Positions 42,970-45,663 of a stretch of DNA of 64,000 nucleotides are shown piece after piece; the stretch's first letter is position 1, and every line of letters begins with the position of its first letter. Location of the stretch: contig JAWLHY010000011.1 in the NCBI GenBank assembly GCA_041690135.1, forward strand, positions 32,001 through 96,000, written 5' to 3'. Below the pieces are notes generated by a model. It was not told where the DNA came from. It ran no database searches and saw only the letters and a program-made list of their open reading frames with translations. Source of the stretch: Armatimonadota bacterium. Its GTDB lineage: Bacteria; Armatimonadota; SYMT01. Both the position numbers and the translations under genes were made by a program.

Positions 42970-43815
42970 ATGAAGCTGTCTGGTTCCCCTCGGTCTCGCG
43001 GGTTCACCCTGATCGAGCTGCTCGTGGTGATAGCCATTATTGCTATTCTTGCGTCGATACTCTTCCCGGTTTTTGCCCAGGCCCGCGAGAAGGCCCGGCA
43101 GACGAGTTGCACGAGCAACCTCAAGCAGATCGGCATGGCCGTATTGATGTACAGCCAGGATGCGGACGAGATGCTGCCGCTAGGCGCATATAACCCTCCG
43201 GGTCAACCGGTGCAGATGTGGTACGACCTGGTGGAGCCTTATGCCCGGGCCGGCGCGCGGGCCGTGAACCAGAACGGGGTGAATGCGCAGCGGGCCGCCG
43301 CGCCGTTCTGGATCTGCCCCAGCGTGGAGAACCGCAGCGTGCCGCTGGTGGGGGGCGAAACGGCGCCCGGGCCGTTCCCGGCGAACAACTTCTCACCCGC
43401 CTTCAGCTACATGGCCAACGCCAACGTCATGCCGTTCTGGCACCGGGGCTTCGCCAGCTTCGGCCATTTCCCCGGCCGGCCAACTGCCCTGGCCGCCCTG
43501 GGCGCCCCCGCGCAGGTGGTGCTGGCCTGTGAGGGGTTGGGCTATATCAACGGCACCGGCGGGGACGACTGGACCACCGGCTGCGACCAGCGGGAGAGCG
43601 GCTACGCGCCGGTGACCGGGCCCACTAACGGCATGGCGGCCATCTACTGCGGCGCTCGTTACCGCCACAGCGGCGGGGCCAACTACCTCCTGGCGGACGG
43701 GCACGTGAAGTGGTTCCGCGGTCCCGGCAACTCCTGGCGCACGCGAGCCACCTCGGGCGTCGCCTGGTCGAAGGTGCTGGCCCCAACGGCCGTGGCCTGG
43801 TTCAAGGAGAACTGA
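42970..43815 (+). CDS. DUF1559 prepilin-type / H-X9-DG protein
   Basis: [51 protein letters not shown]. Confidence 0.93.
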
Positions 43816-43818
43816 GCG

Positions 43819-44778
43819 ATGCACGCCTTGACCGCACTCACGCTTGCGGGGCTGTTGGTCGCGCCGGGAGCGGCTCCGGCGGGTAGCGCCACCGTGGTCT
43901 CCACCGGCCAGAAGGTGACCCTCCCGCAGCACCGCGTGCCCGAACAGCCGACGGTCTTCGTCTTCCTCCGTCCTTCCAGCAGCCTGGAACGGAGCTTCCT
44001 GGAGGGCCTCCGCAAGGAAGCCGGCCCGAAGGTGGGCCTCCGGGAAGTGCACCTGAAGAGCGGGGAAGAGCCGATCGCCCGGCAATACGAGATCGGCTCG
44101 ACCCCCGCGGCCCTGGTCTACGACCGCCGGGGTCGGTTCGTGGGGAGATCCGCGGAGGCGGACGAGATCGCGGCGATGGTTCGGAAGGCTGCCGGAGTGA
44201 TGCGGATCGACTGGGCCGAACCCGGCGACCCTCGCCTCGCGGAGATGGAGAAGATCCTGGGGCGGCCCGTCAACTCCGGGATCATGCGGACGATGAGCCT
44301 GCGCCCCGACTGGCTGCGGCAGATCCACGAACTCCACAGCCTGGCGCACCGCCCCGATACGGCGCTGGACCGCCGCACCAAGGAGATGATCGCCACCTAC
44401 GTCTCCGCGCTCAACAAGTGCAAATTTTGAGTGAGCGCGCATGCGCATAACCTGCAGTTGCAGGGACAAAACCAGAAGGATGTGGATGAGATCGGCCAGG
44501 GGCGGTCCGAAAAGGCGGCCCTGACCGAACGCGAGCAGGCCCTGCTCGACTACGTGAAAGTGCTCACCCTGGAGCCGGCCAAGGTCCGGGACGCACTGGT
44601 GGAGCGGATGCGACGGACGGGCTGGACGGACGAGCAGATCTTCGAGGCCAGCTTCATCACGGCGCTCTTCGCCTTTTACAACCGGATGGCGGATGCCTAC
44701 GGGCTGGACTACAACCCCCGGCGCTGGGTGCCGCCCGCCCTCCGCGGCCCCTCGGGTTCCAAGCCAGGCCGTCCATAG
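43819..44778 (+). CDS. Predicted selenoprotein (319 aa, Sec204): signal peptide + thioredoxin-like domain + AhpD/CMD-family peroxidase-related domain (CxxU)
   Basis: ORFs 43819-44430 and 44431-44778 are in the same frame, separated only by TGA 44428-30; read-through gives EMIATYVSALNKCKF-U-VSAH, matching the AhpD-like NxCxxCxxxH motif; the downstream half is the CMD C-terminus. Confidence 0.88.
44431..44466 (+). promoter_or_regulatory. Putative bacterial SECIS element
   Basis: CCTGC-AGTT-GCAGG hairpin (44451-44464), loop 25 nt after the UGA with G at loop position 2. Confidence 0.65.
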
Positions 44779-44792
44779 GGATGGCCTGGCTT
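44761..44792 (+). terminator. Strong hairpin over the stop codon (terminator or RNA stabiliser)
   Basis: AAGCCAGGCCGTCC-ATAG-GGATGGCCTGGCTT; weak U tract. Confidence 0.5.
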
Positions 44793-44883
44793 GGGTCACG
44801 GGCTGGGTTCACCCGCCCTGACGTAATCGCTGTCGCAAAGATTTCTCACAATACGGTGGCCCTCGCCGCGATAAGATACCGGG

Positions 44884-45663
44884 ATGTGGTCTGATTCCCT
44901 CCTGGTCTTCTTCGCGGCGATGGCCGCCGGTGCGGTCAACTCCGTGGCGGGCGGCGGCACGCTGCTTACCTTCCCCGCTCTCCTGGCGACCGGGCAGCTC
45001 GCCCTCGTCGCTAACGCCACCAGCACCGTGGCCCTCTGCCCCGGTTCCGCCAGCAGTTGGTGGGGCTACCGCCACGAGATCGGCGGGAACCGGCACGCCG
45101 TACTGCCGATGCTGGTCCTCGGCGTGGCGGGCGGCATCACCGGATCAGCGCTGCTGCTCGTTACTCCAGCCCCGCTGTTCGACCGGATCGTGCCGTACCT
45201 GATCCTGGCGGCCACGCTCCTCTTCATTGCGCAGGAGCCGCTCTCCCGCTGGCTGCGCTCGCGCAGCGGAGAGGCGGCGAAGGACGACGAGGAGCACGTC
45301 CACCTCCGGCTCACCCCACCCATGCTGGTCGCGGTTTTCGGGACCGCCGTCTATGGCGGCTACTTCGGAGCGGGGATCGGCATCATCACCCTGGCGGTGC
45401 TCGGCCTGATGGGGTTGCGCAATATCCATCAGATGAATGCGCTGAAGAATGTCTACGCCCTGGCGACCAACGCGGTGGCCGCGGCGATCTTCATCAGCCG
45501 GGGCCTCGTGGACTGGAAGGTCGCGCTGCTCATGGCGTGCGGCGCGCTGTTCGGGGGCTACGCGGGCGCGGGTATTGCACGGAAGATCGGGCAGAAGAAC
45601 GTCCGCCGCATCGTCATCGGCATCGGGCTCCTTCTCACCGCCTCCATGCTGGTGCGCGGCTGA
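44884..45663 (+). CDS. TauE/SafE (TSUP, DUF81) family permease
   Basis: AGAVNSVAGGGTLLTFPAL, ANATST, YGGYFGAGIG, MNALKN. Confidence 0.93.
   Translation: MWSDSLLVFFAAMAAGAVNSVAGGGTLLTFPALLATGQLALVANATSTVALCPGSASSWWGYRHEIGGNRHAVLPMLVLGVAGGITGSALLLVTPAPLFDRIVPYLILAATLLFIAQEPLSRWLRSRSGEAAKDDEEHVHLRLTPPMLVAVFGTAVYGGYFGAGIGIITLAVLGLMGLRNIHQMNALKNVYALATNAVAAAIFISRGLVDWKVALLMACGALFGGYAGAGIARKIGQKNVRRIVIGIGLLLTASMLVRG

Follow-up and report, generated by a model that had tools for sequence, protein, structure and literature searches.

The window analyzed here is a 64,000-nucleotide (nt) stretch from an Armatimonadota bacterium (contig JAWLHY010000011.1, positions 32,001 to 96,000 of the forward strand); coordinates below are window positions unless a contig or locus is named. 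Three genes lie on its forward strand between 42970 and 45663: one for a prepilin-type DUF1559/H-X9-DG protein, one for a predicted selenoprotein whose frame contains a UGA codon, and one for a TauE/SafE (TSUP) permease. The original prediction, made from the letters of the sequence, joined all three into a candidate system. We found that the pilin-like gene and the selenoprotein gene recur as a pair in related genomes, and that the permease gene does not recur with them. The features of the locus are as follows.

42970-43815, + strand: prepilin-type DUF1559/H-X9-DG gene (281 amino acids [aa]).
43804-43809, + strand: AAGGAG ribosome-binding site for the selenoprotein gene, 9 nt before its ATG and within the last codons of the pilin-like gene.
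43819-44778, + strand: selenoprotein gene (319 codons with one UGA), encoding a leader, a Cys-free thioredoxin (Trx) fold, and an AhpD-like domain.
43819-43899, + strand: N-terminal leader (residues 1-27), hydrophobic, without lipobox or twin-arginine motif; likely a signal peptide of the Sec (general secretory) type.
43891-44193, + strand: Cys-free thioredoxin-fold domain (residues 25-125), from fold matches and the structural model.
44230-44700, + strand: AhpD-like/CMD domain (residues 138-294), from TIGR01926, PF02627, Foldseek, and a PDB profile search.
44428-44430, + strand: in-frame UGA read as selenocysteine (U204), from the alignment of homologs and the existence of Cys forms.
44451-44464, + strand: candidate selenocysteine insertion sequence (SECIS) hairpin, CCUGC-AGUU-GCAGG with GU in the loop, beginning 20 nt after the UGA.
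44759-44794, + strand: perfect 16-bp hairpin across the selenoprotein stop codon, without a T-run, from folding against shuffled sequences.
44884-45663, + strand: TauE/SafE (TSUP) permease gene (PF01925, 149.5 bits), adjacent and judged to lie outside the unit.

The first two genes are closely packed: the pilin stop codon (TGA, 43813-43815) is separated by 3 nt from the selenoprotein ATG at 43819, a spacing suited to translational coupling. The permease gene starts after a spacer of 105 nt from 44778, on the same strand and beyond a strong hairpin. Both distances are as the original prediction gave them, and its remark that the pilin-like core carries several Cys residues is borne out, as there are five (47, 116, 187, 205, and 227). 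The hairpin it described is real, with an extent slightly wider (44759-44794) than the 44761-44792 first reported.

The 281-aa protein matches PF07596 (DUF1559; 54.7 bits, cutoff 23.3), PF07963 (N_methyl; 39.5, cutoff 21.2), and TIGR04294 (H-X9-DG; 35.4, cutoff 19). Its class III prepilin leader ends at G11|F12, and the motif that names the family lies at H233-X9-D243-G244. An AlphaFold2 model (predicted local distance difference test [pLDDT] score, 93.3) has an N-terminal helix of about 50 residues (14-64) and a large head. The model gave only weak fold matches to pilins and pseudopilins, with Z scores from 5.3 (6xxd) to 2.5, EpsG (4lw9) being at 4.5; a Foldseek search with it against the PDB gave no match at E ≤ 0.001, and a protein atlas search returned only unnamed, pilin, or DUF1559 clusters. 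The genome that contains the window holds about 118 prepilin-like genes (97 carry H-X9-DG) and a prepilin peptidase gene (PF01478, 34.2 bits, cutoff 26.5; contig C2:942494-942862). Among those 97, Cys47 is present in all and Cys116 in 96, so these two are family-wide; Cys205 and Cys227 occur together in only 2, the window copy and a copy on contig C1, which share 60% identity, compared to 41% for the next paralog. More than 120 pilins of this subfamily came from metagenomes, and in 74 metagenomic members Cys47, Cys116, and Cys227 are invariant, with Cys205 conserved in at least 90%. The C-terminal tail (residues 251-281) also belongs to the subfamily signature.

The frame from 43819 to 44778 contains a single internal TGA, at 44428-44430, and is otherwise open. 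When 12 homologs from related genomes were aligned, the TGA was matched by TGA in 11 and by Cys in the remaining one, and the stretch 3′ of it was the best-conserved part of the selenoprotein. Full-length Cys forms (P0124-P0128) also appeared in a profile search of 1.84 billion representatives, which returned 7137 relatives at E ≤ 0.001, 67 of which reached E ≤ 1e-30. Many database representatives end at profile position 207 or begin at 209, the pattern to be expected if annotation cuts these genes at the UGA. The candidate SECIS hairpin is unremarkable when the window sequence alone is folded (z = −1.1); across 21 homologs, its position is constant and 92% of cells are paired, compared to ≤59% in slid controls. 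Its innermost pair (38/41) is A-U in 12 rows and G-C in 7, a change that alters the encoded residues from QL to RS; since the G-C rows are mostly kin, this exchange represents few events. An Rfam scan of the whole window matched no family. In the genome of the window, selB, selA, selD, and tRNA-Sec all score above their cutoffs; selA, selD (with an in-frame TGA of its own), and tRNA-Sec are clustered at contig C1:1149453-1152359, and selB is on a different contig.

Were the UGA a true stop, the frame would amount to two small genes (203 and 115 codons) or a pseudogene, which is how standard gene calling splits it and how the database entries are split as well. We nevertheless consider this extremely improbable: conservation runs past the UGA, the active-site motif of the protein spans it, Cys homologs exist, the hairpin is conserved, and the full selenocysteine machinery is present. 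Because of the UGA/Cys alignment, the conserved hairpin, and the machinery, we judge on sequence grounds that this is a genuine selenoprotein gene, as the original prediction had it, and that selenium incorporation is to be predicted.

The AlphaFold2 model of the selenoprotein (pLDDT, 90.8; predicted template modeling score, 0.84) shows residues 1-21 as disordered and hydrophobic (pLDDT < 50). Leaders of 27 to 53 aa with a hydrophobic 12-mer (Kyte-Doolittle hydropathy, 1.8 to 2.9) are found in 16 of 22 homologs, and for this reason export of the protein is likely; the other 6, Armatimonas-type forms with a leader of ≤8 aa, make up a clade of their own (support, 100/100) in the selenoprotein tree. 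The first domain matches thioredoxins by Foldseek with E values of 8.5e-4 (2ipa) to 2e-3, and the order of strands and helices in the model confirms the thioredoxin fold. It appears to be redox-dead: a C-x-x-C or U-x-x-C motif is missing, with no Cys in residues 25-125 and PSSS at the CxxC position. T95-P96, at the cis-Pro position, is conserved, and P96 is invariant among homologs. Searched alone against Pfam, this domain had Thioredoxin_3 as its best match, at an E value of only 0.22.

The second domain scores above the cutoffs of TIGR01926 (97.5 bits, cutoff 81.8) and PF02627 (45.4 bits, cutoff 23). The AhpD-core helical fold was found by Foldseek (2prr, 2.2e-9; 6k40, 3.1e-9), and the PDB profile search gave 6k40 at 1.3e-27. 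AhpD of Mycobacterium tuberculosis provides the active-site pattern E-X11-C-X2-C-X3-H; the window protein reads E189-X11-C201-K-F-U204-X3-H208, with E189, C201, and H208 invariant in 22 sequences. The earlier description of the product as an exported selenoperoxidase was thus right about the selenoprotein, its leader, and its thioredoxin-like domain, but the C-x-x-U site is AhpD-like (TIGR01926) rather than of the glutathione peroxidase or peroxiredoxin type, and we infer peroxidase activity from family membership. Several variants turned up among relatives: locus L068:3908-4891, in a metagenome-assembled genome labeled Planctomycetales, has Gly at the selenocysteine position (C-R-Y-G), and representatives P0131 and P0132 carry Ser where the first Cys would be (S-H-Y-C). 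In P0224 (1741 residues), 13 stretches match the Cys-free Trx-like domain (query 31-128), suggesting that this domain is repeated there in tandem. The window's genome has a third AhpD-like gene containing an in-frame TGA (contig C7:400171-400719), which matches in the AhpD domain only (40% identity).

We read ten related loci from eight genomes over ±8 kb or to the contig end. A pilin gene of the same subfamily lies directly upstream of the selenoprotein gene, on the same strand, in six of the ten, with gaps of 4, 4, 3, 2, 5, and 35 nt. L046 instead shows a convergent gene of a distant H-X9-DG type at 22 nt; at L048, the upstream sequence amounts to just 134 nt; and L047 and L049, whose proteins are leaderless, have no pilin gene. 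The genome of the window contains a second whole pair on contig C1:156784-158564 (− strand), with a gap of 5 nt and no permease gene of the TauE type near it; the two pairs are 60% identical in the pilin-like protein and 61 to 63% in the selenoprotein. Both subfamily pilin genes of this genome, 2 of its 97 H-X9-DG genes, therefore sit directly upstream of a selenoprotein gene of this kind, and the pairing is above chance.

Wider samples gave a similar picture. Among 26 loci from named genome records (mostly Armatimonadota), some of which probably repeat the ten loci, the pilin gene lies upstream in 6. Only 11 of 80 metagenome loci include the Trx-like domain; 5 of these 11 have the pilin gene upstream (L083-L086, and L089 at a contig edge), and 3 with at least 2 kb of upstream sequence have none. 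The AhpD-only metagenome loci have an upstream pilin gene in 0 of 69 cases. Counting in reverse over 41 genomes, we found 12 full-length subfamily pilin loci, 7 of which are followed by the selenoprotein gene; the 5 orphan loci have no downstream gene in common, and the neighbors of selenoprotein loci that lack a pilin gene are unrelated among themselves. Leaderless forms of the selenoprotein never occur with the pilin gene; two Armatimonas-type genomes (L047 and L062) carry leaderless tandem duplicates, one copy with TGA and one with Cys. All pilin-linked rows of the selenoprotein tree fall within an unresolved part of the exported group, which also has a supported subclade of six rows (97/98) without pilin. 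Beside the closest orthologous pair, L042, none of six other window neighbors recurs. The identity matrices of the two proteins correlate (r = 0.62), a value that carries little weight because the rows are kin. Overall, the pair is conserved in a group of soil Armatimonadota, where it is clade specific, well kept, and not obligate. The tight pairing of a Cys-bearing pilin-like gene with a selenoprotein gene, as first proposed, is thus upheld by its recurrence.

Some observations concern the H-X9-DG family more widely. Two more such prepilin-like genes lie on the + strand of the window, at 26370-27149 and 36577-37308, outside the selenoprotein-linked subfamily. Several H-X9-DG genes of this genome are followed within 30 nt by short open reading frames (ORFs; 80 to 93 aa); these begin with a hydrophobic leader that ends in Cys and resemble small, Pro-rich lipoproteins. 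We rejected a general partner rule for H-X9-DG genes of this genome, since among 49 ORFs downstream of them only the selenoprotein pair and one other pair recur. A pyrroloquinoline quinone (PQQ)-like beta-propeller gene with a twin-arginine-like leader (41345-42736, − strand) diverges from the pilin gene, and at L080:2976-4175 a propeller gene with 26% identity to it immediately precedes, on the same strand, an orphan pilin gene of the subfamily; this adjacency may be due to chance, because the window's genome gave 27 tblastn high-scoring segment pairs to the propeller protein.

The pair appears to end at the hairpin at 44759-44794, in whose loop the selenoprotein stop codon (TAG, 44776-44778) falls. 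An 81-nt stretch around it folds at −52.4 kcal/mol, compared to −31.6 ± 3.3 for shuffled sequences (z = −6.4; 0 of 200 as good). A smaller second hairpin follows immediately 3′ (44795-44822). The 16-bp hairpin is unique in its genome, which rules out a repeat element. Most orthologous pairs are likewise followed by a strong hairpin, those of L042 and L051 with T-tails. A promoter and terminator scan of 42500-46000 detected neither a sigma-70-like promoter within the 105-nt spacer nor a canonical terminator at the position of the hairpin. We think it likely that the hairpin ends the two-gene transcript.

The TauE/SafE gene is single-copy in its genome, and none is found near related loci: 0 of the 10 read over ±8 kb, 0 of the 26 genome loci, and 0 of the 80 metagenome loci. 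It is an unrelated chance neighbor of the pair. Conservation of the neighborhood, which the original prediction had named as its own check, thus holds for the pilin and selenoprotein genes (6 of 10 loci) and fails for the permease gene. A three-gene unit, in which the pilin-like protein would capture a sulfur or selenium compound, the selenoprotein would act on it by redox chemistry, and TauE/SafE would transport it, could appeal to the common strand, the 105-nt spacing, and the lack of a sigma-70-like promoter in the spacer. With the permease gene absent from 10 of 10, 26 of 26, and 80 of 80 related loci, including the second pair of the same genome, and with a strong hairpin between the genes as at the ends of orthologous pairs, it is largely refuted by the neighborhood data, and we rate it as very unlikely. 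Membership of TauE/SafE in the system accordingly falls away, and nothing we found bears on a role in capture and transport of a sulfur or selenium compound. Redox maintenance of the pilin-like subunit, the other role suggested in the original prediction, is conceivable.

With moderate confidence, we favor the interpretation that 42970-44778 encodes a two-gene redox module of the cell envelope, without TauE. The first product would be cleaved by the prepilin peptidase and anchored, through its N-terminal helix, in the inner membrane or a pseudopilus; the second, translationally coupled to it, would be exported as a soluble protein. In the AhpD-like domain, the U204 selenolate and a resolving Cys201 could cycle via a selenenylsulfide, such that the C-x-x-U site would reduce peroxides or disulfides beside or on the pilin-like protein, which would serve the selenoenzyme either as a tether or as a client. 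The Cys-free thioredoxin fold may serve as a docking or binding domain toward the pilin-like protein; the noncatalytic domains of protein disulfide isomerase, which act as binding domains, offer an analogy. We infer the joint action in the envelope, the cotranscription, the contact between the proteins, and the chemistry. Since leaderless forms are pilin-free and the pilin can lack the enzyme, we prefer the view that an existing enzyme was recruited to a pilin tether or client in one lineage.

Several points weigh against this two-gene module. Neither junction is bridged by transcript data: contigs from RNA libraries (four runs) gave a few near-identical pieces inside the pilin gene and on either side of the UGA, possibly from DNA carryover, none of which spans 43815/43819 or 44778/44884, and the runs (n = 6) hold 5 to 9% of sampled words. 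The window hairpin has no T-run, so that read-through into tauE could occur. The five orphan pilin loci among the 12 retain both the Cys pair and the tail, and therefore the pilin-like protein does not need a selenoprotein partner; conversely, seven exported homologs (L048, whose upstream sequence is cut short, L060, L066, L068, L072, L073, and L074) have no pilin neighbor. The related loci are kin and thus not independent. Lastly, the module presupposes physical contact between the two proteins and a periplasmic electron donor, both hypothetical; a complex prediction for pilin residues 36-281 with Trx-like residues 24-132, run with no alignments, returned "no answer" (score 0.00) and speaks neither for nor against contact.

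Two other explanations accept the pair and differ on what it does. The selenoprotein might be a general periplasmic peroxide or disulfide reductase that is coexpressed from the pilin promoter, with no contact or shared task. Each gene does occur alone in relatives (the 5 of 12 pilin loci and several loci of exported forms), and the leaderless forms stand alone in varied contexts. Such independence is hard to reconcile with a single pilin subfamily being kept upstream at 2 to 5 nt down to about 50% identity, and with a pair that is duplicated in two genomes and moves among otherwise unrelated neighborhoods; we view it as unlikely. Alternatively, the pilin-like protein might be a specialized pseudopilin of a type II secretion-like machine that escorts the selenoprotein as cargo to the surface or outside. 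Type II secretion cargo carries a Sec-type leader, as the selenoprotein appears to; the pilin fold resembles pilins and pseudopilins (6xxd and EpsG, above), and the genome is rich in prepilin-like genes (about 118). However, the match to the GspG model TIGR01710 reaches 40.4 bits against a cutoff of 88.85, no genes of a secretion machine were seen adjoining the pair, and no DUF1559 protein is known to have such a role, the papers found on the family giving no function. This explanation seems to us quite unlikely.

A broader idea can be put forward very tentatively, and we hold it to be doubtful: that DUF1559/H-X9-DG proteins, of which this lineage has about a hundred copies per genome, are tethered to the membrane or carried on a pseudopilus and act as docking subunits for periplasmic enzymes, here for a selenocysteine-containing AhpD-type oxidoreductase by way of its Cys-free thioredoxin fold. 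If true, it would mean a pilus-like structure with its own selenium-based redox center and the first defined partner of a DUF1559 protein. Few paralogous families of Planctomycetota and their allies are larger than this one, and no function is known for it; according to one report, a single species has 68 copies, two of them essential (PMC10632474). With a conserved, coupled partner, one DUF1559 subfamily now poses a concrete question for biochemistry. Among the AhpD-like selenoproteins, the pair introduces a two-domain form that is predicted to be exported; genes of this kind are split by standard annotation.

AhpD-like C-x-x-U selenoproteins (COG2128/TIGR01926) have been known since 2005 from the Sargasso Sea (PMC1088965) and are listed in a 2026 review (PMC13188914), a text in which pilin, periplasm, signal peptide, and Armatimonad are absent as words. 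Our literature search (DUF1559, H-X9-DG, AhpD-like selenoproteins, prepilins, and Armatimonadota) found DUF1559 mentioned without a function anywhere and no description of the pilin-selenoprotein pair. The selenoprotein family is therefore known, and its domain architecture here and its partnership with a pilin appear to be unreported.

With that family, the window protein shares a TIGR01926 score above the cutoff, the C-x-x-U motif, and a hairpin downstream of the UGA; it differs in its leader and Cys-free thioredoxin fold and, in one clade, in its pilin partner. The best sequence and fold matches, over residues ~140 to 300, are Deinococcus radiodurans AhpD (6k40) and the AhpD-core structures 2prr, 3c1l, and 2oyo, whose C-x-x-C-x-x-x-H motif aligns with the window protein; unlike it, these are single-domain proteins of 181 to 197 residues with Cys in place of selenocysteine and no Trx domain in the solved chains. 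NF041238 (AhpD_rel_CFYUT, the Sargasso Sea "hypothetical protein 1") also has C-x-x-U, a similar length (357-position profile), and a C-terminal AhpD-like part. The window protein does not belong to it: the score is 62.8 bits against a cutoff of 175, and only profile positions 157-337 match, in the C-terminal half, the N-terminal halves being unaligned.

The pilin-like protein has the N-methylation leader, Cys47/Cys116, and H-X9-DG in common with other DUF1559/H-X9-DG proteins of Planctomycetota, Verrucomicrobiota, and Armatimonadota, but belongs to a distinct subfamily of ~280 aa marked by a second Cys pair (205/227) and a conserved C-terminal tail; in one clade, this subfamily also has a fixed partner downstream. 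The leader, the long N-terminal helix, and the pilin-like head fold are also common to type II pseudopilins (GspG/EpsG) and type IV pilins, although the GspG and PilA cutoffs are not reached, the head is about twice as large, and structural Z scores do not exceed 5.3; we rejected GspG membership, as the TIGR01710 match covers only the N-terminal 56 residues. Finally, DsbA-like and DsbG-like selenoproteins, as tabulated in PMC1088965 and PMC13188914, are a precedent for selenocysteine-containing thiol-disulfide oxidoreductases in families that work outside the cytoplasm. Their U-x-x-C lies within the thioredoxin fold, whereas in the window protein the thioredoxin fold is predicted to be redox-dead and the selenocysteine to reside in the AhpD fold.

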